64,000 bases of DNA from Tubiluchus corallicola (lineage: Eukaryota; Animalia; Priapulida), in NCBI GenBank assembly GCA_030141605.1, contig JAQGDQ010000008.1, forward strand, positions 1,302,001 to 1,366,000, read 5' to 3'. Under the pieces are notes generated by a model that saw only the letters and a list, made by a program, of their open reading frames with translations, did not search any database and was not told where the DNA came from. This document shows, piece after piece, positions 622 through 64,000 of the stretch. Positions within the stretch are counted from its first letter, which is position 1, and every line of letters begins with the position of its first letter. A program made the position numbers and the translations under genes.

Positions 622-30671
<30,050 letters not shown>

Positions 30672-42555: not shown

Positions 42556-43468
42556 GGTTTTACACGTCAAATGTAGACACAGGAAAGTTCAAATGTGACT
42601 TAGGTATGTCAAATGTAGACATAGGAATTTCGAATGTGTTTTGGTAACTCATATGTGACTTAGGTAAGTCAAATATAGACATAGGAATTTCGAATGTGTT
42701 TTGGTATCTCAAATGTGACTTAGGTAAGTCAAATGTACTTTGAATAAATCGGTAATTAACTAATTTAAGTGCAAATTACAAAAAGTTAAAACCAAATTAA
42801 AATTATATTTTATGGTCATGGTGCTATCGGCAGCATCAATCTTTATTATATTTAATTAATTTGCAACTATTTGTATGGACGTTAATACATTTTTCAAATT
42901 TAAAGAAAATGTTTGTTTGATAAGAACACTTAAAAGTGTTGTACATAAATAAGTTAACAATTATAGAATTATTAATATATACACCAATTCTACATTTTAT
43001 TTGTCAACGTTTTACAAAAACATTTTTTGAATTACTAATCAAATCTGAAAAAATTAAAATTGTAATCCATGAACAGTTAATTACCAATTAGTTTTTTAAC
43101 TAATGCATTAGCACTGCATTAATGAATTAGTTTCTCTCAAGAAACATTGTTTATTTTAAGAATGTATTGTTTTCTTTAACAGTGCCAATGGTATGTAAAG
43201 TTTGCAGAATATTAGTGAACTATTAGTAGGCCTATAACGTTGTTATTTTAATTTAAGAGCAATTATTAAATTGAAATTAAAGCAGATTAAATTTAACATC
43301 CTTAAACTTTAAGACCTATCCACATTTGAGATATATATGTCACATTTGACTTGACATGTGTCTACATTTGAATTACCAAAAGCGCTTAAGATTTGTTGAA
43401 AACCATTGTTAACACATTTGAATTACCTAAATCTACATTTGAGTTAACGCAGGTCTACATTTAAAACC
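42556..43468. mobile_element. Foldback-type non-autonomous DNA element
   Basis: GGTTTTA / TAAAACC termini flanked by TA. A ~20-bp TCAAATGT(A/G)GAC array at 42567-42740 is mirrored in reverse complement (..ACATTTGA..) at 43320-43462. AT-rich spacer. Confidence 0.65.
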
Positions 43469-45790: not shown

Positions 45791-45974
45791 ACTGGAGTAA
45801 CGAAAATAGAAATGGGCAGGATGGAAAAAATTCAGAAGGAAACGTTACGAAAACTATTATCACTGACGGTGTCACCTAGTTATTTGGTGTGTGGCCGATT
45901 GAACAGAGAATAGATAACAAAAGGTTGATGTTCTTACATAATCTACATGTAGTAAATTCAAGTGAGTCCAGAGA

Positions 45975-46005
45975 TGTTGTTGTTGTTGTTGTTGATGATG
46001 ATGAA

Positions 46006-46041
<36 letters not shown>

Positions 46042-46044
46042 AAT
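45975..46044. repeat. (GTT)n(GAT)n microsatellite, left flank of the LTR element
   Basis: Directly visible. Confidence 0.92.
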
Positions 46045-46455
46045 TGTGAGAGACTACTACTTCATGATGCCCAAAGTCAAAAAATTCATGTTTGAGTAGC
46101 TTTATTACGTTTTATCTGTAAAACAAATCATAACAAAATATGACAAACTAATTTGAGCCAAAAAGGAAACAAAGAAATTAATAATAAAGTGAGACTGAAT
46201 AATCAAAATAAACTTACATCATGGCTCTACTACTCTTGACAAATAAATGGTTTAACTGAGACAAAACAACAACAACAACAACTCTCTTAGCCAAGAACAG
46301 ACTGCCAACTAACCAGGTAAACTAGCTCTGTCAGTAGAGCATGACAGAAAGAAGCCAAGTCAAGACTTACATATGAATGCAGTTAAAGGACAGTATAGGG
46401 GGGTTTACAGAATAAGAGAACACTGAACTAATAAAATAACCTAAAATCCTTCACA
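46045..46455 (-). repeat. 3' LTR (411 bp)
   Basis: Direct repeat of 51938-52347, preceded by the PPT; AATAAA near its end. Confidence 0.97.
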
Positions 46456-46465
46456 CCGCCCCCTT
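46456..46465 (-). other. Polypurine tract
   Basis: AAGGGGGCGG abutting the 3' LTR. Confidence 0.85.
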
Positions 46466-46521
46466 AAATGCGACTTTAATTACAAAAGCATTTACCAAAA
46501 TAATTAAGTTTACAACAGAAA

Positions 46522-47110
46522 TTACATGTGTCCTTCAATTAAACATAATTGATTAATATGTTGTCTTAGAATGCCAGAAACTGTCTTCAATGTTGCAAAC
46601 CGCACCAAACCATCTTCATCAGGACTGGCTACTACTACTCTGCCTAGAGCCCAGCTGCTTCGTGGAGTCTGGATGTCTTTAATTAGGACGATGTCACCTT
46701 CTTGGATGTTTTTCTTGGCTCTGTTCCATTTAGACCTTTGCTGGAGCATAACTATATATTCCTTCTTCCACCTTTGCCAAAATATGTTGGCCATATGTTG
46801 AATGTGGTGCCATCTTCTTGAGTACACATCACAGTCGGTGAATTTTCCAGGTGGTAGAGTAGGACCATTGCGCAGCAACAGCAAGTGATTAGGAGTCAGA
46901 GGTTCGCAATTGCGAATGTCATCTGAAACTACAGAAATCGGACGACTATTAGGATATTCTCAACCTGACAAAAATATGTGTGTAATGCTTCATCATCTAT
47001 GGTGTGCTTGTCCATGATAAAGGTAAGTGTTCGTTTTACACTCTTTATCAGCCGCCCCCAAACTCCTCCAGTGTGTGGAGACTGAGGAGCATTAAATCGC
47101 CATTCGATTA
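46522..47110 (-). pseudogene. Frameshifted integrase C-terminal part and DUF5641-type tail
   Basis: VIEWRFNAPQSPHTGGVWGRLIKSVKR...QVENIL / NSRPI...PLTPNHLL...FWQRWKKEY...GDIVLIKD...WALGRV in shifted frames. Confidence 0.88.
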
Positions 47111-50100
47111 CCTTTTTTGTAATGCCTTGGAAATGTCCTCATTGTTCCACTGCTCGATCGATCTCTTCAGTTCACGATCTGCTCCAGTTAAATTAGTGCC
47201 ACAATCAGATCGCAGCATCTTGGGTTCGCCTCTTCGACAAACAAATCTTTGGATAGCATTAATTAAGGAGTCACTTTCCATTGTATATAGCCAACGCTGC
47301 CATCTTTCTTGGATACAACTGTCCAATTCATCATCCCAAGACTTCCTGTGAAGTACAGTGGCTTCCTGAAAGAGAAGTTTTCCTCGAACAACATAGAGAG
47401 ATAAGAAGCCCAGGGGATCATACACCGAGCATAAAATGCTCAACATTCCTCTTCTAGTGTAGGGTTTCTGCTTGAGCTTGATTTTGACATAAAAAACGTC
47501 TCTGTGCATGTCCCACTCGACTCCTAAGACTCTCTCTCTAGGTAAATTGTCGTAATGCAAATCCAAAGTTTTGACCGATTTTCCACGTTTCTCTGCTGGT
47601 GTGCTTTCCAAGACTTCTTTCTTGTTGCTCAGCCATTTGGTAAGGTTGAAACCACCTTCAGCTAATAGTGAAGTCATTTGATGAACTAAGTTACAAGCAG
47701 CTTCCACAGTATCAACCGACTTTAAAAAATCATCGATGTAAAAGTTCCGTTCAACAGCCTGGGTTATTTCCTTGTCGTACTTGTCTTCATTGTCAGTGAC
47801 TGTGCGTCCAAGGGCAAAAGAAGAGATACTGGGAGACCATACACCTCCAAAGAGATGAACTGTCATCCGATAAACTTTTACAGTGTCTTCCAGATTTCCG
47901 TCTCTCCAATATAAGAATCTCAGTGGCCTGACACGGACCTGGTAAAACATGGCTTCAATATCTGCCATGACAGCGACGTCCTCCAGATGAAAGCGTATAA
48001 GAACTCCTATGAGCTTGCTAGTCAAGTCAGGACCTTGCAAGACAACGTCGTTAAGTGAGACTCCATTAAACTTGGCCCTGCAGTCGAAACCAATGCGAGT
48101 TTTATCAGGCTTGTTGACATTAAAAACTGGGAAATGAGGGATATACCATGTCTTCCCCATGACGCCTGAATCGTCATCAACTTCTTCTGCATATCCACAA
48201 GTTAACAGATTGGAGATTTCTGCTGAATACTTTTTGTGCAGTTCTGGATGTTTAGAAAGACTGATCTTCAAACTTGATAGTCTGGATTCAGCCATTGGTC
48301 GATTATCCTCCAAATTTGGATCGTGCTCCTTAAAGGGAATGGCTAATTGATAATAGTTATCAGCGGTTTTTTCTATGCTATTTTCCCAGATTTTTAGTGC
48401 ACGCTTGTCTTGTTTTGAGTGAGTTACAGTTTCATCATTGATGCATCTCTCCAATCTCCAAAATTTTTCAACCTGTGTTGACAGTATGTGATCATTGTTT
48501 ATGTCGACGTGAGCGTAATTGGCTACGTAACATAATGATTGGCTGCCGCCCCCTATGGGCCCGTTTAGAGTCCATCCGAGTGCAGTTCTGATGGCATAAG
48601 GATCCATTGGTGAAGAACCAAGTCTCACCTCAAGAGGTGCCAAGGCAACCGGTACATCCTGTCCAATGAGAAGCATGACACAGTTAAAGTCTACATCAGG
48701 AAATGAGAGGTCACTGAGATGATCTAAAGTGGACAAATCAGTCTTTTTAACAATACTCTCTGTGAGGCTTGGAAAGGCATCTATGGCATAAACTGTATTC
48801 AGTTTAACAGCTTCTTTGGCCTCTCCACAGTTGTTGCCTCTTACTGTAAGAGAAATTTTCTCAGCTGATGTAGTCTGCTTCTGACCTAATGTGGAAAGCA
48901 TCAACGATGTTTTATGTCCTTTTAGACCTAGTAGCTTCAAAAGTCTTTTACAGCAAAAGGAACGATTGCTTCCCCCATCCAGAAAAGCATAAGTAGATAT
49001 GGACTTTGTGCTGCCTTCAGACGTAACAGTTACGGCGACAACTGGCAAAACAATTTTTTCCTTTATAGAAAGTGCAGATGATGCACATACTGTGGCATCA
49101 GCTTCCATTGCCTCACTGGTTTGTGTGCCCTTTTGCTTGCTTGCATCTGATGGCAACCAACTTTCCAATGCTGCATGGAGTAAGTCAGAATGCCTTCTTT
49201 TGCAATTGGCCTGATTGCATCCTTGTCTTCGACACTGCGCTGCTCTATGTCTGCCAGGATTTAGACAATTGAAACAAAGATGTTTTTTCTTGACGTATTG
49301 GAGACGAGCATCATCTGTCATTTTCTTGAATTTTCCACATGCTCTAAGATGGTGATTTTCCTTACACATCAGACATGTCTTTGAAGCTGGCTGGTCAGGT
49401 CTCTTCTCTTTACTTGGAGTTACAACTGAAGAACTCGAATAGCTGACAAAACTGTTTACGGGATCCTTCCTGTTTTTGTAATCTTTGGCATTATCGCTGC
49501 CTCGCTTACTGACCTTTCGAGTGTCAGACAAGCAGCCATACACAGGATGAGACATCTCTTCAGAAACTTCTTGAACAAAGTTCTTTACATCAAACATGTC
49601 TGGGTTCCTATGTTCTGATCTTGCAGTTTGAGTAACCTTAGTCTGCCATCTGCTTTGATATTTGTATGGTAGCTTTTTGATCACGTCCAAGATGTTCGCT
49701 TGAGTGTTAAGCTCCCCGAGACTATTCATTGACCATAGTGTCTCTATACAACTATTTAGCAGATCAGAAAAGTCACGTAGCTTCTCTGGTTCACTTGGCA
49801 TAATGCTTCCAAACTCTTTTAATTTGTTTACCCAGGCTTGTGTTATGATGTAGGGCTGGCCAAAGCGTTCTGCCAACAATCGCTTAGCATGGGCATATGC
49901 AGTGTGTGGTTCCATATAGTTGCACCTTTCAATGACTTGCTTAGCCCTGCCTGTGCACAATTGTAGTAGACGACTAAACCTTGCAGACTCATCTGTAGTG
50001 TAGCACTCTATGCTAGCCTCTAGTCTTCTCATAAAACGCCAGTAATGTAATGGATTGCCGTCAAAAACTTCAACTTCTACTTTAGGCAAATGTAGTGTCT

Positions 50101-51688
50101 GGTAGATACTATTCTGCTGTCTTTGACCTTCCATCATAAAGTTGATCATAGCACTGAGGTCAGGATTGTGTGATGTGGACGGCTCATCCATAATATTAGC
50201 TGCAAATCTGGGAGTAGAACCCTCCATATGAATATTGTTGCCGTTCGTTGGAGATGCACGATGTGGAATAAAATGTGGAGCCATTGCACTCAAGTTTCTC
50301 ATCTGTCTACTGGGAGGCATATTTTCAGAGCGATTTTCATGTTTGAATTTTCGAAAGTCATGCATGAATGGTTGTACACGTGTCTGATATATTTGTCTCC
50401 AAACATCTACATAACGAGAAAAATGCGATGCTTCATGGCGACGCAGCACGTCCATATTCATCCAAGGCTTCTGCTGACCAATAAAGTGTACTACCTTGAC
50501 ATCTCTTTCAAACTGGCGCATTGCAGGAATGTAACCATACCTTGCATCATCATCAACATTGACCATATTGTAAGTATATGGAAGATGTTTGTCGAAATCG
50601 CCTGCCCAGTTATGGAAAAACATATTCAGCAGTCCCTGATCACCTCCATCAAAGCTACCATTTTGACAAGCAAATGCTAGTAACTGTTCATATGTTGTCA
50701 CATCCGGCTTAAACACGAAAACACCAGAATTGAATAAGTCCGGCCAGCCAACATCAGGAGCTGCGGATAATTCCTGCCTCTGAAATAAATCATCTATGTT
50801 TGCCATAACCAAAGTGTCAGCATCAAGGAAAACACATTTACTAAACTGTGTAAGTTTCCAGCAATGCAGTTTCGTGAAACTCACACCCAGCTCAGGTCGT
50901 CCCAATGCACTTAGATTTTCATGATCCAAACTGTCAATGATGTCAAAGGTCTCCACCTGATCAAAAGTCTTTTCAAGAAGAGCCTTCATCTGGACAGACA
51001 CGTCAGTAGATATCATGATTACCAACTGTCGTTGTGTGCCAGTCTGCTTCAATGAATTGGCAAGTACCAAAGCAGCTGTTGCATACTGATCGTTGGTTGC
51101 TAGCGTAACATAAGCCTCGTCTACTGATATTCTATCACACAATGAAGACTTCTTAAACCATTCTGTCACTTTAGTTTTACTTGCAAATTCGTCAACCTTA
51201 ACTTTAAAACTTTTCTGGCTTGCAGTCAGTTTATCAATATCACTTCCCAAATTACTCTCATTTTCAAGCCGCTTTTGCTTCACTTTTAGTGCTTGCAGTT
51301 TTAATTCGCACTCCTGAATCTTTAATTCATTGTCCTTAAGCTTGCGAGAATTCACAGAAAGCTTCCCACCAGTTTTAAAACTCGAGTAACCACTTTTGGA
51401 AATTCTTGACCGAGTGCTTGTGGTGTGTTGCTCCCCCATGCTACCTGTAGCATGTAGCTGCTGCATGTGGCTGACTGTAGCTTCGGCCTTGAAACTACCT
51501 GTGGGGGGTGGGCTGTCTACTGCTGGCACATGATGAGCAATAATTCTCTCCACTAGTTCAGCTTTAATTCCACCAACTGCTAAGCCTTTCTGACGAAGTA
51601 TTTCTTTTAATTGTTCTCTGGTTTTTGTTTTCAGTTCTTCTTCTGTGTATTGCTTTGCAGCCAGTTCATAAAATTTTGGCTCTGCCAT
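47108..51688 (-). CDS. Gag-Pol polyprotein: SAP - coiled coil - glycogenin GT8 - BEL Gag - Zn knuckles - aspartic protease - RT - (deletion) - partial integrase
   Basis: First ATG at 51688. Motifs: LPKVEVEVFDGNPLHY (DUF1759-type Gag); CLMC..H..C / CFNC..H..C / C..C..H..LLH (49175-49375); FLDGGS (48979); WYIPHFPV, ADIEAMFYQV, HLFG..WSP, YIDD (47729-47740); SVYDPLG; RFVCRRG..LRSDCGTN. Confidence 0.93.
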   Translation of the reverse strand: MAEPKFYELAAKQYTEEELKTKTREQLKEILRQKGLAVGGIKAELVERIIAHHVPAVDSPPPTGSFKAEATVSHMQQLHATGSMGEQHTTSTRSRISKSGYSSFKTGGKLSVNSRKLKDNELKIQECELKLQALKVKQKRLENESNLGSDIDKLTASQKSFKVKVDEFASKTKVTEWFKKSSLCDRISVDEAYVTLATNDQYATAALVLANSLKQTGTQRQLVIMISTDVSVQMKALLEKTFDQVETFDIIDSLDHENLSALGRPELGVSFTKLHCWKLTQFSKCVFLDADTLVMANIDDLFQRQELSAAPDVGWPDLFNSGVFVFKPDVTTYEQLLAFACQNGSFDGGDQGLLNMFFHNWAGDFDKHLPYTYNMVNVDDDARYGYIPAMRQFERDVKVVHFIGQQKPWMNMDVLRRHEASHFSRYVDVWRQIYQTRVQPFMHDFRKFKHENRSENMPPSRQMRNLSAMAPHFIPHRASPTNGNNIHMEGSTPRFAANIMDEPSTSHNPDLSAMINFMMEGQRQQNSIYQTLHLPKVEVEVFDGNPLHYWRFMRRLEASIECYTTDESARFSRLLQLCTGRAKQVIERCNYMEPHTAYAHAKRLLAERFGQPYIITQAWVNKLKEFGSIMPSEPEKLRDFSDLLNSCIETLWSMNSLGELNTQANILDVIKKLPYKYQSRWQTKVTQTARSEHRNPDMFDVKNFVQEVSEEMSHPVYGCLSDTRKVSKRGSDNAKDYKNRKDPVNSFVSYSSSSVVTPSKEKRPDQPASKTCLMCKENHHLRACGKFKKMTDDARLQYVKKKHLCFNCLNPGRHRAAQCRRQGCNQANCKRRHSDLLHAALESWLPSDASKQKGTQTSEAMEADATVCASSALSIKEKIVLPVVAVTVTSEGSTKSISTYAFLDGGSNRSFCCKRLLKLLGLKGHKTSLMLSTLGQKQTTSAEKISLTVRGNNCGEAKEAVKLNTVYAIDAFPSLTESIVKKTDLSTLDHLSDLSFPDVDFNCVMLLIGQDVPVALAPLEVRLGSSPMDPYAIRTALGWTLNGPIGGGSQSLCYVANYAHVDINNDHILSTQVEKFWRLERCINDETVTHSKQDKRALKIWENSIEKTADNYYQLAIPFKEHDPNLEDNRPMAESRLSSLKISLSKHPELHKKYSAEISNLLTCGYAEEVDDDSGVMGKTWYIPHFPVFNVNKPDKTRIGFDCRAKFNGVSLNDVVLQGPDLTSKLIGVLIRFHLEDVAVMADIEAMFYQVRVRPLRFLYWRDGNLEDTVKVYRMTVHLFGGVWSPSISSFALGRTVTDNEDKYDKEITQAVERNFYIDDFLKSVDTVEAACNLVHQMTSLLAEGGFNLTKWLSNKKEVLESTPAEKRGKSVKTLDLHYDNLPRERVLGVEWDMHRDVFYVKIKLKQKPYTRRGMLSILCSVYDPLGFLSLYVVRGKLLFQEATVLHRKSWDDELDSCIQERWQRWLYTMESDSLINAIQRFVCRRGEPKMLRSDCGTNLTGADRELKRSIEQWNNEDISKALQKR
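50369..51121 (-). other. Glycogenin-like GT8 catalytic domain embedded in Gag (aa ~193-443 of the listed ORF)
   Basis: EAYVTLATNDQY..ALVL..SL, RPELGVSFTKLHCWKLTQFSKCVFLDADTLV..NIDDLF, ELSAAPDVGWPDLFNSGVFV, GSFDGGDQGLLN.FF..W, KHLPYTYN, YGYIPA, VVHFIG..KPW are colinear with animal glycogenin. Confidence 0.96.
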
Positions 51689-51937
51689 TATAAACAAGCT
51701 GTGAAAAATTTATACTAGTCAAATAAACCAGTTACTGCTGAATCTAGGTCACAGAACTCAAACCAGGTATTGCAAATTTTCAATGTCACTGTCTGATCAA
51801 CACCAGGCTTGTAGGCTGTACAGCTTGTCCTGTATAACAAATGCAGTCATCATTGCTGTCCATGTCTGACTTTGTACTCAGCTAACCGCCTCCTGTCCTG
51901 TAGTTTTCCCAACAAGAATGGTAGAAAGATATAAAAC

Positions 51938-52347
51938 TGTGAGAGACTACTACTTCATGATGCCCAAAGTCAAAAATTCATGTTTGAGTAGCTTTATTAC
52001 GTTTTATCTGTAAAACAAATCATAACAAAATATGACAAACTAATTTGAGCCAAAAAGGAAACAAAGAAATTAATAATAAAGTGAGACTGAATAATCAAAA
52101 TAAACTTACATCATGGCTCTACTACTCTTGACAAATAAATGGTTTAACTGAGACAAAACAACAACAACAACAACTCTCTTAGCCAAGAACAGACTGCCAA
52201 CTAACCAGGTAAACTAGCTCTGTCAGTAGAGCATGACAGAAAGAAGCCAAGTCAAGACTTACATATGAATGCAGTTAAAGGACAGTATAGGGGGGTTTAC
52301 AGAATAAGAGAACACTGAACTAATAAAATAACCTAAAATCCTTCACA
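51938..52347 (-). repeat. 5' LTR (410 bp)
   Basis: TGTGAAGG...CTCTCACA on the minus strand; identical to the 3' LTR except for one A in a homopolymer. Confidence 0.97.
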
Positions 52348-52556
<209 letters not shown>

Positions 52557-53139
52557 TAAACACTTTATTGCTATAAAAATTACGCATCATTGAACGGTGA
52601 ACTACACATTCAAAAACTGATAGTATAACCAGTGTTGCCACTGCTGAGAGAAATAGTACTATACAATAAAATGAATTTACAATTTAAAACACAAGTGAGG
52701 CTCTAATGATTACATAATTATATAAAACCTTATGTTTTATTTCACACACTTCAGAGTATGTAACACATTTACAATACACTATTTATTTATAAACGTAGTT
52801 TTTGTAAAATATGAAGCGTATAAAATTGAAATTGGGTGTGTGATTGGCGTTTTGCATTGGTGATTAGAGTTTTTGTGTGTAATAGGTTTTTTACAATATT
52901 AAAATATGTTGCTGTGATGTAAATTCACGACAGGTTTTGATCTGCCACTGACTACAGACTACTAGGTAAACGTTGATAATTAAAAAAAAAGTGTGATTAA
53001 ATAATTTATTTTTTTTCGTATTAGTTGTTTTTTGAAGGCTAGTACAGTATATTTTTTTTATTTTTAAACTTTTAGTGTCACTGCAGATTTTACATTAAAT
53101 GGGCATGCATTTTATGTATTTATTGCCGATTTTGCAAAC

Positions 53140-53643: not shown

Positions 53644-53681
53644 ATTGCCGATTTGCAAACAGAATTGTGTTTATATTAATA

Positions 53682-54153
53682 CAGTGGACTCTCGTTATAA
53701 GAATCAGCTCGATATAAGAATCAAAATCGCGTTTCCCGAATTGATTCGGCATTTTCCTAGTGAAAATCCGCTCGTATAAGAATCACGCTTCTTTCGATAG
53801 TAGAATCAATTTTGGCGCCAACTCCATTGTCTCTCACGCCCTGCTTACAAGGTTCTGCGCAGTGGGCGTGGCGGAAAAAAATTGTGCATTAAAATTTTTT
53901 TAAGGCAATTCTGGCATCATGAAATATTTACCCAACCATGAAATGAAAACATTAGTAATTTTTAGGTCCTTTTTAGGCCAGAAAAACATTATGCTGTTTC
54001 ATGTCGTTTCTAGCGTAATTTCGGGAAATAAATAATTTTTATGTGCATAAAATTTTTTTAAAGCAATTCTGGGTCATGCTCGTTATATGAATCGCTTGTT
54101 ATAAGAATCACTTTGCCTTCTCCCGAGGTGATTCTTATAACGAGAGTCCACTG
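53682..54153. mobile_element. Tc1/mariner-pogo (Tigger-like) MITE
   Basis: Perfect 25-bp TIR CAGTGGACTCTCGTTATAAGAATCA; TA TSD; internal ATAAGAATC repeats. Confidence 0.92.
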
Positions 54154-54249
54154 TATTTGTGTTTATTTGTTTTATGCTGTGCGTTCTTTGGTTTAACGTT
54201 TTTTCTATTGTAAATGGAAGCTGCTTGGCACTAAAAGCTGGCATTACAG

Positions 54250-55899: not shown

Positions 55900-57700
55900 A
55901 TGGTAACTTTTCACAAGCCATGGATAACACCAGTCATACTGAAACTAGAAGCCAACTGTTTAATGTATTTAAAAACTATAACAATGTTTATAATAGAAAT
56001 AAATACAAAGTTTATTCGGACAAACTCAACCATATAAAATATTTAGCAAAAAAAGCTACTATCAAGAAATCTTGCAAAATAGTAAAAATAACACAAAGAA
56101 ACTTTGGTCGACCATAAATAGTTTAATTAATGGTAAATTGCAGCAACGCATAACACCAAAAAAAGGTACACAAAGATGACATTCTCTCAAGTGATATAAC
56201 TGATATCTGTCAAGTCACGAACACTTTTTTTGCTTCCATTGGTCCTTGTATGGCATCTAAAATACAACCCACACAACTGTCATTTCAGTCTTTTCTAGGA
56301 TGCCCTTTGCCAAACAAGTTCTTCTTAACACCCATTATTGAAGCTGAAATAAATGCAGCAATAAATAATTTAAATCAGAACAAAGCCACCGGTCATGAAA
56401 ATATTTATATATCATTCTACAAATCAACTGGTGTCAATATTTCCCCTGTTCTAACTAAATTGTTTAACGCTATTACTGAAGGTACGTTCCCTAGCTGTTT
56501 AAAGATAGCTAAAATTATTCCTATTTATAAAGGCGACTCCCCCGATAACCCCACTAACTATAGGCCAACATCTTTACTTTCACCTATCTCCAAAATTTTT
56601 GAAAAATTGCTTTATAACAGACTAATAAAATTTATAAACGACAACAAAATTCTCTTTAGATTTCAGTTTGGGTTTTGCAAAAGATACTGCACATCTTAGC
56701 TATTGCTGAACTTACAGACAATCTGTTACTAAATATGGATCATAATAAGTACACCTGTGCCATATTTTTAGATTTATCAAAGGCCTTTGATACTGCACAA
56801 CATGATATTTTATTAGCCAAACTTCAACACTATGGTATCAGAGGACTGCCTCTTCAATTGCATATTTACACAATAGAAAACAATATACATCTATAGCGAA
56901 TAAAAACTTAGATCTGGTAAATGTACAGTGTGGTGTTCCTCAAGGCTCAACTCTTGGTCCGATTTACACAAATGATCTCCCTTTAAATACTCAATTACAT
57001 ACTAGACTTTTTGCTGATGATACTAACTTTTTCAGTTCTGATACCAACATAAATCACCTAGAAGAATTTCCTAATGTTGAATTAGCCAAAGTAGATCTAT
57101 GGATGAGAGTCAATTGGCTTTCTATAAACTATTCCAAAACTAAATATATGATGATTGGTAATCCGAGAAAAGTAAAAAAATTGACATTAAATTTTGACAA
57201 TGGGAAATACCAGGAAACAATCTGTACAACAAACAAAATATCTAGGAGTATTAATAGATCACAATCTTTCATGGAAAGTACATATAGTAGTAGTAGTAGT
57301 ACTACTACTACTACTACTACATATACAATATATTGTTAATAAAACCAGTAAAATTATAGGTATTTTTTCAAGAATTAGGCATTTCCTGAATTATGATTCA
57401 AAAAAACTTCTATATTCTCCCTTATTTTCACCGTGTTTAGAATACAGCATACTTACCTATGGCTCAGCATTGTATCCCTTTATTACTAATCAAAATAAAT
57501 TTATAAAACTTTGGACAAATACAAATAGAAGAGCCCATGTTACAGCTTTATACCACCAGCATAAAATCTTAAAACTTCAGGATATATGTAACTTAGAGGT
57601 GGCCAAATTTTTTATATAGATTTAAACACAATATGCTTCCTGAAATTTTTCAGAATTACTACAAATCCGTAGCCCAGATGCACGAGTATCATACACAAGA
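55900..57700 (+). mobile_element. Decayed LINE ORF2 (Crack/Daphne-like, L2 group)
   Basis: FPSCLKIAKIIPIYKG, NYRPTSLL..ISKIFEKL, FLDLSKAFDT..HDILL.KL.HYGIRG, CGVPQGSTLGP, LFADDTN, KYLGVLID.NLSWK.HI across frameshifted ORFs. Confidence 0.88.
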
Positions 57701-61452: not shown

Positions 61453-64000
61453 ATGAAGTGTGCACAAGTGAATCAGAAGCTTCTTCCACTTAAATTGTGC
61501 TACTTTTTCTACTATGCAGGTGATTTTAAACTCTGTTATAAATTGCAAAATCATTATTGGTGAATAGCTTTGTCAAAGTAATCTCCAAATGTGGGGTTGG
61601 AGCACACTGAACTAGAGTTCCAGTTGCAGTTTTTAATCTGACTTGTGGTATGTGGGTCGCAAGTTTGAATTAATATTTCAAGGGAAAGCCTAGTCAGGTA
61701 AATTACTGCAGCGTGTGCGTAGGCAAAATCTCAGGTGAGAATATGTTATTTTTAACTTTTGCATTTTTTGTCTTTTGGCAGGTGCAGGGTGTCTTATCCC
61801 ATTTCTTTCTGTTTATCTAAAGGAAGAAGGATGGAATCCGTTAGAAGTTGGAATCATTTACACCATCTTTCCTTTTGTAGCTGTGTTAGGCAAGCCGTTA
61901 GTTGGTGCATTAGCTGATTACTTACGTGCACACAAAATGGTCTTGTTAGTCAGCATCATTTTAGCAATGGCTTTTTTCATGGCAATTTTGCTGGTACCTC
62001 CAATTCACCGCCACGGATTTTCCCATCAGGTGATGCCACAATGTTCTGAGGATGGATCATCAGCAAAACTACTGTATTGTGATGAGTGTCAGTTGTTAAA
62101 AGTCACTGAACCTCAGTCGTGCAAACTCTTTTGTCCAGTGTTCAATATCTTGACAAATGGAACTGTCTTGAGGGAGAATGAAATTACAATTGGTATTGAA
62201 TTGTTAGTTTCTGAACCTGTGGCTGATAATCAACAAATGGCATTTCTTTCTAGCACAACTATGCCGTCTAAGCTTTTTACGGGTGATATTACTACAAATG
62301 AAAACATTAATACTAGTACTATTGCTGTTACTACTAAAGCTGCATTTGTAAATCGTTTGATTTGCAATTCTTATAGTGTCACTTCCACAAAAACTGACAA
62401 TCTCTCAGTTATATGTGGTGCAGTAGAACATGCCAATAATCATCTTTCTTCTTGCACAGTCAAGTGTAGGGTGGACATGTTGCAATGTGCCGTCGTGGGG
62501 CAGTCTGAGAAAGGAGTTCGATTAGTTTGGGAATTCTGGGCTCTACTTGCGCTGTATGTTTTCTCAAAGATATTCTCTTCGTCGAACCTGTCATTGCTGG
62601 ACATGATAACGTGTGTATGTCTTGGTGAAAAAGATGAACATTATGGAAAGCAGAGGCTATGGGGAACGCTTGGGTGGGGGATTTCTGCCTCGATTACTGG
62701 CATTGTCATGTCGGAAGTTCGACGCATAAATAATGCCGAGTACATGAACTTCAATCCTGCATTTTATTTGTATTTTGGCTTCATGGTAACAGTGGTTATC
62801 ATTAGTCTCATGCTTACTGTAAAAGTTGATCATCAATCTCAGAATATTGCCAAAGACGTGTTTAAAACTTGTCGAAAGCCGGCTGTATTTGTATTTCTGC
62901 TTGCAGTCATAGCACTTGGAATCCAATTTGGTGTATTAATGGCATTTAGTTTATGGTATCTTGGTGATTTGGGTGCATCAGAACTGCTGTATGGTCTTAA
63001 TTTGACTGCAGAGACTATAGGAGAGGTGCCATTCCTATTTATTTCTGGTTACTTGATAAAGAAAATTGGACATGTTAGGTGCTTGTATCTTGCCTTTTTA
63101 GGACATGGTGCTCGGTACCTTATTTTTTCTTTTCTGAGAAATCCGTGGTGGTCTCTTGCCCTGAATCTTTCTCATGGACTTTCGTGTGGGTTGATGGTTG
63201 CCACAGCTGTGTCCTACTGCAATCTAATTTCACCAAGAGGAACTGCGGCCACTATGCAAGCATTTGTTGCTGTTTTGTTTGACGGAATAGGTAATCATCA
63301 CGTTCATGCATAATTTGTAATACATTTACTCAAGCTATTATTCCTTGAGATGCTGCATACAAGTAATGTGCATGTCCTGCGATCACACTTTAGTGATAGT
63401 ATGCCCAAGAAACTTTAATGCTGCTGTTCTTCAAGTTGATAATAAATGTAAGTTTGCAAAACTATCTTTTTGGTGTAAAGAAATTCAAAAGTAAATTTGT
63501 TGGTCGTAAATCTAGCTTTCAGTTGTGAAGGATTTACGTTATTATATACAAATGCAGTTTAATATTATTACCTAATTTAAATTTGCAAATTTGCTTTGAT
63601 TTTTGAGAGAAGCGTGGACAGAAAATAATTTTCCAATTCACAAACTCTTGAGGCTGCTAACTACAGTGTAGAACAGTTTGCAGGTAGAGTGGTGGTATGG
63701 AACCCTACCACTTCAGGTACAATTAGACTACGTGTCTAATTATCAAAAGTCTTTTCTGTATTTGCAACTGTAACTTTCAAAATGTTGATGTTGCACTTGA
63801 CCTTTTAATTTGTCTCACCCTTGATTTGTATAGCACTGTTATTACTATGAACTATGTTTTTTACTCTTAGGCTCAGGGTTTGGTAGTTTGATAGGAGGTT
63901 TCATATATGAGGAGTACGGAGGTGCCATTACATTTCGAAGTTTTGGCATTGGTGCTATTGTTTGCTGCTGCCTCTATGCCTTAGCTCAGTTGTTTGTCAC
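61453..64000 (+). CDS. MFSD6: MFSD6-like major facilitator superfamily transporter, join(61453..61519,61782..63290,63871..>64000)
   Basis: MKCAQVNQKLLPLKLCYFFYYAG | AGCLIPFLSVY..G...KPLVGALAD...YGKQRLWGTLGWG...EVPFLF.SG.LIKKIGH...ATMQ..FDGIG | SGFGSLIGGFIYEEYGGAITFR; both introns GT..AG and phase 1. Confidence 0.87.

Follow-up and report, generated by a model that had tools for sequence, protein, structure and literature searches.

A BEL/Pao retrotransposon of Tubiluchus corallicola with a glycogenin-derived catalytic domain inside its Gag protein

Several viruses and retroelements are known to carry host-type domains or glycogenin-related enzymes. One is the mimivirus protein R707, homologous to glycogenin, which works with UDP-glucose and Mn2+ and has been proposed to glycosylate viral proteins (PMC9614988). 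Burro elements carry MATH, BCL-2, ubiquitin-like and dUTPase domains, while Terminons and rotifer long terminal repeat (LTR) elements carry GDSL esterases, according to the accessible portion of PMC6431247. BEL/Pao elements are recognized by LTRs of 0.2–1.2 kb around gag-pol, a polypurine tract and an 18-nucleotide (nt) primer-binding site complementary to tRNA-Arg or tRNA-Gly (PMC8742986), and env is the one extra gene mentioned in the accessible part of a survey (PMC3118150). Here, we analyzed a stretch of 64,000 nt from contig JAQGDQ010000008.1 of the priapulid Tubiluchus corallicola (the window), in which a BEL/Pao LTR element on the minus strand (46045-52347) carries the catalytic domain of a glycogenin inside its Gag protein. 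Host-type domains in retroelement polyproteins and viral genes for GT8 enzymes have been described before; a glycogenin domain within Gag is apparently new.

We propose, at a probability of roughly 0.6, that the element represents a BEL/Pao lineage that captured its glycogenin domain long ago, and that selection has likely maintained the domain as a working glucosyltransferase displayed on the particle exterior. We find support for the uptake into Gag of the catalytic domain of a host glycogenin, as claimed in an earlier note on this DNA, as well as for the reality of the junctions, the presence of the fusion in other samples and purifying selection. The element contains a single minus-strand open reading frame, 51688-47111, of 1,526 residues (P0001), in which Pfam places SAP at residues 19-52, Glyco_transf_8 at 194-411 and DUF1759 at 542-687. 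This confirms the domain order given in the earlier note, with glycogenin between the SAP/coiled-coil region and the capsid domain. The features of the Gag part are:

51533..51634, minus strand: SAP domain, residues 19-52 (PF02037), which also opens two glycogenin-less BEL relatives (P0266, P0275)
51209..51346, minus strand: Ser-rich, then coiled-coil-like Gag segment, from a reading of the sequence and a by-eye match to BEL relatives
50345..51130, minus strand: glycogenin catalytic (GT8) domain, residues ~187-448, intronless and lacking the synthase-binding tail
50879..50881, minus strand: Ser at the position of human Thr83 (lid)
50816..50824, minus strand: DAD metal-binding motif (human Asp102-Asp104)
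50531..50539, minus strand: equivalents of Tyr195 and Tyr197, right behind a 3-residue insertion in the acceptor arm
50462..50488, minus strand: HFIGxxKPW motif (human His212, Lys218)
49550..50086, minus strand: capsid domain, residues ~535-713, DUF1759, resembling the PNMA2, dArc1 and Copia capsids (Z 8.0-8.6)

First, we evaluated the identity of the captured domain. The GT8 stretch matches rabbit glycogenin-1 with an E value of 4e-89, and host glycogenins align to 51121-50363 as one uninterrupted stretch with neither stop nor intron, as the earlier note had read it. The predicted model of the domain has a pLDDT (predicted local distance difference test) of 86 and template-modelling scores of 0.79-0.90 to glycogenin structures (40 glycogenin rows). 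All of the claimed motifs occupy the claimed positions: DAD at 50824-50816, the His of HFIG at 50488-50486 and the codon equivalent to the acceptor Tyr195 at 50539-50537, with KPW and SFDGGDQG also present. In residue numbering taken from a rabbit sequence, the equivalents of Tyr15, Arg77, Lys86, Asp102, Asp104, Asp125, Trp128, Asn133, Asp160, Asp163, Gln164, Tyr195, Tyr197, His212 and Lys218 are kept, amounting to 15/15 of the examined catalytic, donor-binding and dimer-contact residues; apart from those of Asp102 and Tyr195, the roles of these residues follow the structural literature on glycogenin. Near-invariant columns (at least 95% conserved in hosts) are kept in 77 of 83 cases, versus 12 of the 77 most variable columns. 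Since every catalytic residue is kept, particles likely bear a working sugar-adding enzyme on their surface, and judged by its sequence the domain is rather probably active as a Mn2+/UDP-glucose glucosyltransferase.

The same conservation can be viewed as that of a structural or docking module, in which the folded dimer pre-organizes Gag, or docks particles on host glycogenin or glycogen granules, and catalysis is incidental. The inter-subunit contact residues named in the available part of PMC12267440 are kept, the captured stretch stops at folded-domain boundaries, and a misfolded insert would be harmful to Gag, which is by itself enough to bring the ratio of replacement to silent changes per site (pN/pS) below 1. 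We nevertheless consider a purely structural role quite improbable, as Asp102, Asp104, His212, Lys218, Gln164, Lys86 and Arg77, polar residues with no obvious folding role, are kept despite a branch of 1.1 changes per site.

Second, we evaluated whether the fusion is real, using data from sequencing runs in the form of assembled contigs. Runs X1, X3 and X4 come from one sample, which may be the source of the window, and X2 and X5 are from other samples and studies. The stretch or part of it is contained in five of the six runs listed, from three studies; the sixth, X6, gave no match to the stretch and is uninformative on expression. One X1 contig of 1,068 nt covers 50243-51307 and so takes in both junctions; it is gapless and shows 10 differences. 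The 742-nt contig from X2 covers 50776-51517, across the upstream junction. Joints that skip the glycogenin domain are not listed in any of the five runs. Contig depth is similar over the domain and the Gag core (70 versus 74-80 in X1; 1283 versus 1145-1298 in X3), and the domain contigs of X1 and X3 exceed a few diverged relatives in depth by a factor of ~6 to 11. Several copies of the element per genome are therefore likely, and only likely, because contig depth is not a copy number. The uneven depth in X2 was considered as a sign of a spliced or deleted form and rejected: no such joint is listed, and adapter ends point to a library effect.

An assembly artefact, in which a retrotransposon was wrongly joined to a glycogenin gene or transcript of the host, has in its favor that all runs are contigs, not reads. 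We regard it as practically negligible, given the X1 contig over both junctions, the X2 contig from another study over the upstream one, a frame that stays open across both, and the same arrangement in a lineage diverged by 8%. Misassembly, which the earlier note had set in advance as grounds for abandoning the claim, is thus not borne out.

Third, we compared the domain with host glycogenins and with its counterpart in a related lineage. Its identity to 119 host domains has a median of 53.5% and a maximum of 56.9%, compared with 57.6% for hosts among themselves, and its terminal branch is 1.1 changes per site versus a median of 0.18. A quick-search tree of 64 rows, made up of the element and 63 of the 119 hosts (33 named, 30 unnamed), does not place the domain, which makes a long-branch join with a nematode at support 45. 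A separate X5 contig of 316 nt, in which position 83 is Thr, has the sequence of an ordinary glycogenin and is taken as the putative host glycogenin gene. It is ~75% identical to the element over 119 nt, a rough figure as the flanks are loose ends chosen as unlike, and its differences were obtained as 11/30 by computation, 9/59 from the table and 10/30 by hand. Being strongly diverged from host glycogenins, the captured domain is not a recent copy; the one-off passenger near-identical to a host gene that the earlier note had named as a possible refutation does not agree with an identity to animal glycogenins of only 53-57%.

Divergence between the X5 relative and the window copy is 8.3% for the domain, compared with 10.9-12.3% for the Gag core and pol. 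Selection was judged from 40 of the 68 rows of domain differences, in this one pair of lineages. By codon position these comprise 25 third, 12 first and 3 second positions, and by effect 24 silent and 16 replacement changes, which gives a pN/pS of 0.17 unweighted (binomial p 4e-8) or 0.28 transition-weighted (p 5e-5). Only 1 of 15 changed residues falls in a near-invariant column, where 70 of the 189 columns are near-invariant (p 0.01), and there are no indels in the domain between the two lineages. A pol control for the ratio of replacement to silent rates (11 silent and 18 replacement changes in 29 rows) was dropped, both as a small selection of 708 rows and because many of the rows are private changes of the defective window copy. 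These results support, at the level of sequence, purifying selection on the domain between the two lineages; neutral decay, also raised in the earlier note, is not borne out by a pN/pS of 0.17-0.28 without indels in this pair. A limit on this result is that a need for folding would by itself lower pN/pS.

The selection figures also bear on the possibility that the domain is a harmless, tolerated passenger, or that the constraint stems from one copy that serves the host. In X5, the element contigs have a depth of 13-17.5 versus 20 for the host-type glycogenin contig, so that the element may be low-copy there; the fusion is found in no other lineage among the best matches listed, and no host sequence has drifted as far as the domain. 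A passenger is nonetheless hard to reconcile with the low pN/pS, with the lack of indels and with a domain less diverged than the Gag core or pol. In addition, the near-identical LTRs and the many LTR flanks in X1 and X3 fit a recently mobile family, and the X5 relative has a longer pol. We therefore consider such an origin of the constraint very improbable.

Fourth, the position of the enzyme within Gag suggests where it would act. The segment behind the linker is predicted to fold with a pLDDT of 92, and its top seven Foldseek rows are all retro-capsids, if weak ones (best E 0.011, PNMA2). Structure comparison gives Z scores of 8.0-8.6 for PNMA2, dArc1 and Copia, that for PNMA2 being 8.6 (root-mean-square deviation 5.1, 160 aligned). 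The next folded domain is thus the capsid, which places the enzyme upstream of the capsid domain and implies one enzyme copy per Gag. The Gag core is preceded by 519 residues here, or 257 without the domain, where 116 relatives have a median of 214 and a maximum of 476; judged by its sequence, the domain seems to have been inserted cleanly into the variable front part of Gag. In the belpaovirid Atlas virus, the available part of the report describes a capsid N-terminus on the outer surface, where a fused nanobody still permits assembly (10.64898/2026.03.22.711591). By analogy, the glycogenin domain would sit on the particle exterior and face the cytosol, where UDP-glucose is, unless the protease removes it at maturation.

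Several observations count against the proposed reading. Of 342 hosts, 341 have an acceptor arm shorter by 3 residues, and the remaining one (P0362) matches the element in arm length. The Thr83 position is Ser, where 346 of 348 hosts have Thr and 2 have Ser, and the C loop has 20 residues versus a host mode of 26. In human glycogenin, a change of Thr83 to Ser is considered tolerated, a point to which we give no weight here. The element also deviates at 6 of the 83 near-invariant columns, the maximum in any of the 119 hosts being 4, and its long branch may be partly owed to an unsampled host lineage. The selection test covers a single pair of lineages and 40 of 68 difference rows; were the 24 unseen X5 differences all replacements, the silent share would be 38% versus 29% expected (hand calculation). 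Silent and replacement codons do not differ significantly in how they fall across the conservation classes (Fisher p 0.10), and the probability of staying stop-free over 64 neutral changes is 0.08, a weak argument in which stops are checkable in the seen rows only. Finally, the run contigs showed no further complete copy in flanks of its own, and their depth does not amount to a copy number.

PMC12267440 identifies the lid, acceptor arm and C loop as the segments that control self-glucosylation, and it describes human GYG2 as keeping the Tyr and rarely self-glucosylating. R707 likewise keeps the Tyr, and self-glucosylation is reported as absent in the accessible part of PMC9614988, while the patient allele Thr83Met abolishes autoglucosylation as far as the available text of PMC13671788 goes. 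Because GYG2 and R707 keep the Tyr and barely or never self-glucosylate, the kept Tyr of the element is no proof of self-priming. The X5 contig is gapless across the acceptor arm, and the 3-residue insertion is therefore common to both lineages. The element also lacks the C-terminal tail that binds glycogen synthase in glycogenin (PMC12267440, available part): a tail profile that finds 117 of 120 control glycogenins has no positive-scoring match in P0001, and the captured stretch ends where the catalytic domain ends. With the tail missing and the lid, arm and C loop changed, glucosyltransferase activity is likely and self-glucosylation uncertain. The "apparently intact glycogenin" of the earlier note is accordingly an overstatement, and as the defining tail is missing, we file the domain as a glycogenin-derived catalytic domain and not as a glycogenin.

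These departures would also suit a retooled transferase, which is active without self-priming and glucosylates another part of Gag, a host defense protein or a small molecule, in the manner of R707. The element retains its donor-binding and catalytic residues but has lost the tail and changed in the lid, acceptor arm and C loop, and both R707 and GYG2 show that a kept Tyr may go with absent or rare self-glucosylation (PMC9614988, PMC12267440). We consider such retooling unlikely, as Tyr195 and Tyr197 and the partner residues Trp128 and Asp160 are retained, identity to true glycogenins is 53-57% for the domain versus 26% for R707, and the host sequence P0362 has an arm of equal length.

Returning to the proposed reading of a captured, selected glucosyltransferase, we envisage the following course. 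An ancestor of the element would have taken up the coding part of a spliced glycogenin mRNA by template switching during reverse transcription; capture from mRNA is inferred because the domain is intronless. On the assembled particle, neighboring Gag molecules may pair via the glycogenin dimer contacts. That short alpha-glucose chains are then put on Gag's own acceptor Tyr has, in our judgment, a little less than an even chance, and another exposed part of Gag might be the acceptor instead. Without the tail there would be no direct recruitment of glycogen synthase, and the product would be a short sugar stub and not a glycogen granule, unless pairing with host glycogenin allowed glycogen to be built. 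Least certain of all is what the element gains, which is a guess: as a mimic of a glycogen primer, Gag could lodge particles among glycogen granules or be shielded from host recognition, and we view either as doubtful. The fuller picture of a self-glycosylating capsid, in which each Gag primes cytosolic alpha-glucan on itself and the particle poses as a glycogen granule that is stored or inherited with glycogen (e.g. in oocytes) while shielded from defenses, is rather improbable. If true, this would be the first known case of a retroelement producing a sugar coat for itself. If the domain is active, a cytosolic particle could glycosylate itself outside the secretory pathway, tying transposon biology to glycogen granules; and a tail-less glycogenin domain under selection with altered lid, arm and C loop is a natural experiment on the needs of self-priming.

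The rest of the element is laid out as follows:

52348..52352, minus strand: candidate target-site duplication, left copy, ATTAT; weak, in a microsatellite/low-complexity setting
51938..52347, minus strand: 5' LTR, 410 nt, TG...CA
51920..51937, minus strand: expected primer-binding site, with no TGG start; its first 7 nt could pair with a complementary LTR site
47108..51688, minus strand: Gag-(deleted)Pol open reading frame, 1,526 residues
49175..49375, minus strand: three Cys/His zinc knuckles (nucleocapsid), from a reading of the sequence
48965..48985, minus strand: aspartic protease motif LDGGS, from a reading of the sequence; the region is alignable to BEL relatives
47729..47740, minus strand: reverse transcriptase YIDD motif, from a reading of the sequence
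47288..47290, minus strand: deletion point, with ~460 residues gone, namely the larger part of RNase H and the first half of integrase
46522..47287, minus strand: integrase remnant, frameshifted, with DUF5641 at its end
46456..46465, minus strand: polypurine tract
46045..46455, minus strand: 3' LTR, 411 nt
46040..46044, minus strand: candidate target-site duplication, right copy, ATTAT

The element is BEL/Pao, assigned by its sequence similarity to BEL relatives. The LTR size, the polypurine tract and a Gag with capsid and nucleocapsid domains agree with the family, as does the Pol order of protease, reverse transcriptase, RNase H and integrase with Peptidase_A17 and DUF5641, where RNase H and integrase are partly deleted in the window and longer in run X5. 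At the primer-binding position 51920-51937, the first 7 bases are complementary to the LTR at about its position 340, a match too short to speak for self-priming. The two LTRs (410 and 411 nt) show 0 mismatches and one 1-nt indel within a T run, and because they are nearly identical, with no substitution, the insertion in the window is young. The matching LTRs of the earlier note therefore stand, while the target-site duplication claimed with them is weak: the ATTAT 5-mer at both element ends lies inside an (ATC)n/(ATT)n microsatellite. The embedding trinucleotide microsatellite occupies 45963-46044 and 52347-52560, with (TAA)n for ~200 nt on the side of the 5' LTR.

Pfam finds Peptidase_A17 in P0001 at residues 1411-1475, covering the first 64 of 162 positions. 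Compared with three BEL relatives, the alignment jumps ~460 residues at residue 1467, and an X5 contig has 1,362 extra bases at 47288-47290 relative to the window copy, whose integrase remnant is frameshifted near 47112 and 46950. As the deletion takes most of RNase H and half of integrase, the window copy is non-autonomous; it is a young deletion derivative that would need Pol from another copy. The open frame of 1,526 residues is thus real as an open reading frame, although it does not encode the intact Gag-Pol implied by the earlier note. Separately, a contig from X2 extends 27 bases across the deletion point, below the 31-base rule, and has neither frameshift. This hints that the X2 sample may share the deleted form, as a non-autonomous subfamily in which the Gag-glycogenin frame is kept whole.

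The LTR end is joined to numerous different flanks (20 contigs in X1 and 19 in X3, which may include solo LTRs), and these, together with the near-identity of the LTRs, fit a recently mobile family. In X1, X2 and X3, though not in X5, depth in the LTR bins (51938-52347) is tens of times that of the internal region, for which we propose many solo LTRs or related families with a common LTR. An X1 contig of 6,690 nt matches 48584-48870 only (12.5% different), with no match continuing in the direction of Gag at 85% likeness; it may be a truncated copy, or else a sister element whose Gag is different.

Elsewhere in the window, exons with immunoglobulin-like repeats lie at 2309-9095 (minus strand), which we take to resemble twitchin/titin-type muscle proteins, and a long single-exon stretch at 61739-63313 (plus strand) encodes an MFSD6-like transporter, whose comparison did not point to one host phylum. 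Broken reverse transcriptase fragments of the long interspersed element type are read from the translation at 56154-57619 (plus strand), and inverted-repeat pairs typical of small non-autonomous DNA transposons are found at 53678-54157 and 42567-43442.

Searches for other fusions of this kind gave none. A Gag-glycogenin fusion is absent from the best 120 of 416 long GT8 proteins, and a GT8 domain from 120 BEL relatives (the best 120 of 187). The best 150 of 13,604 matches in a set of 1.84 billion protein representatives contain no fusion, and none scored above a lone glycogenin. Among the 487 proteins compared, 365 match the glycogenin part only, 122 match Gag and Pol only, and 0 match both; in seven proteins with an internal GT8 domain, no retroelement family turned up. 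A metagenome scan returned 3 loci, 0 of them with Gag or Pol, and the ESM Atlas gave no usable match. The protein libraries are poor in unannotated animal repeats and do not cover Repbase, which makes these negatives weak. No description of a glycogenin-Gag fusion was found in the literature searched, which left out subscription journals, nor was another case of a glycosyltransferase in a capsid precursor found; the fusion is apparently undescribed.

Compared with known systems, the element is closest to BEL/Pao retrotransposons, and among the matches listed its nearest relatives are unassigned elements and those of sea urchin, sea star and nemertean, at 34-37% identity. It shares with them the LTRs, the polypurine tract, one gag-pol frame, the capsid fold, three zinc knuckles, the order of the Pol domains and DUF1759, Peptidase_A17 and DUF5641, and differs in its GT8 domain and longer Gag front and, for the window copy, in the pol deletion and the lack of a TGG primer site. 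With animal glycogenin-1 (GT8) it shares the fold, the DxD motif, His212, Lys218, Gln164, the acceptor Tyr195 and the dimer-contact residues; unlike glycogenin-1, its domain lies inside Gag, has no tail, carries Ser for Thr83, has an arm longer by 3 residues and a short C loop. Mimivirus R707 and baculovirus P13 are likewise GT8 enzymes, carried by viruses (PMC9614988 and PMC4133818), but they are stand-alone genes of large DNA viruses, whereas the domain here is fused to the shell protein of a retroelement and is 53-57% identical to glycogenin, compared with 26% for R707. The accessory domains of Burro, Terminon and rotifer LTR elements are, like that of the element, of host type, placed in frame or alongside and presumed helpful; in the available part of PMC6431247 they lie downstream of Gag or in separate open reading frames and include no glycosyltransferase, whereas the enzyme of this element lies upstream of the capsid.

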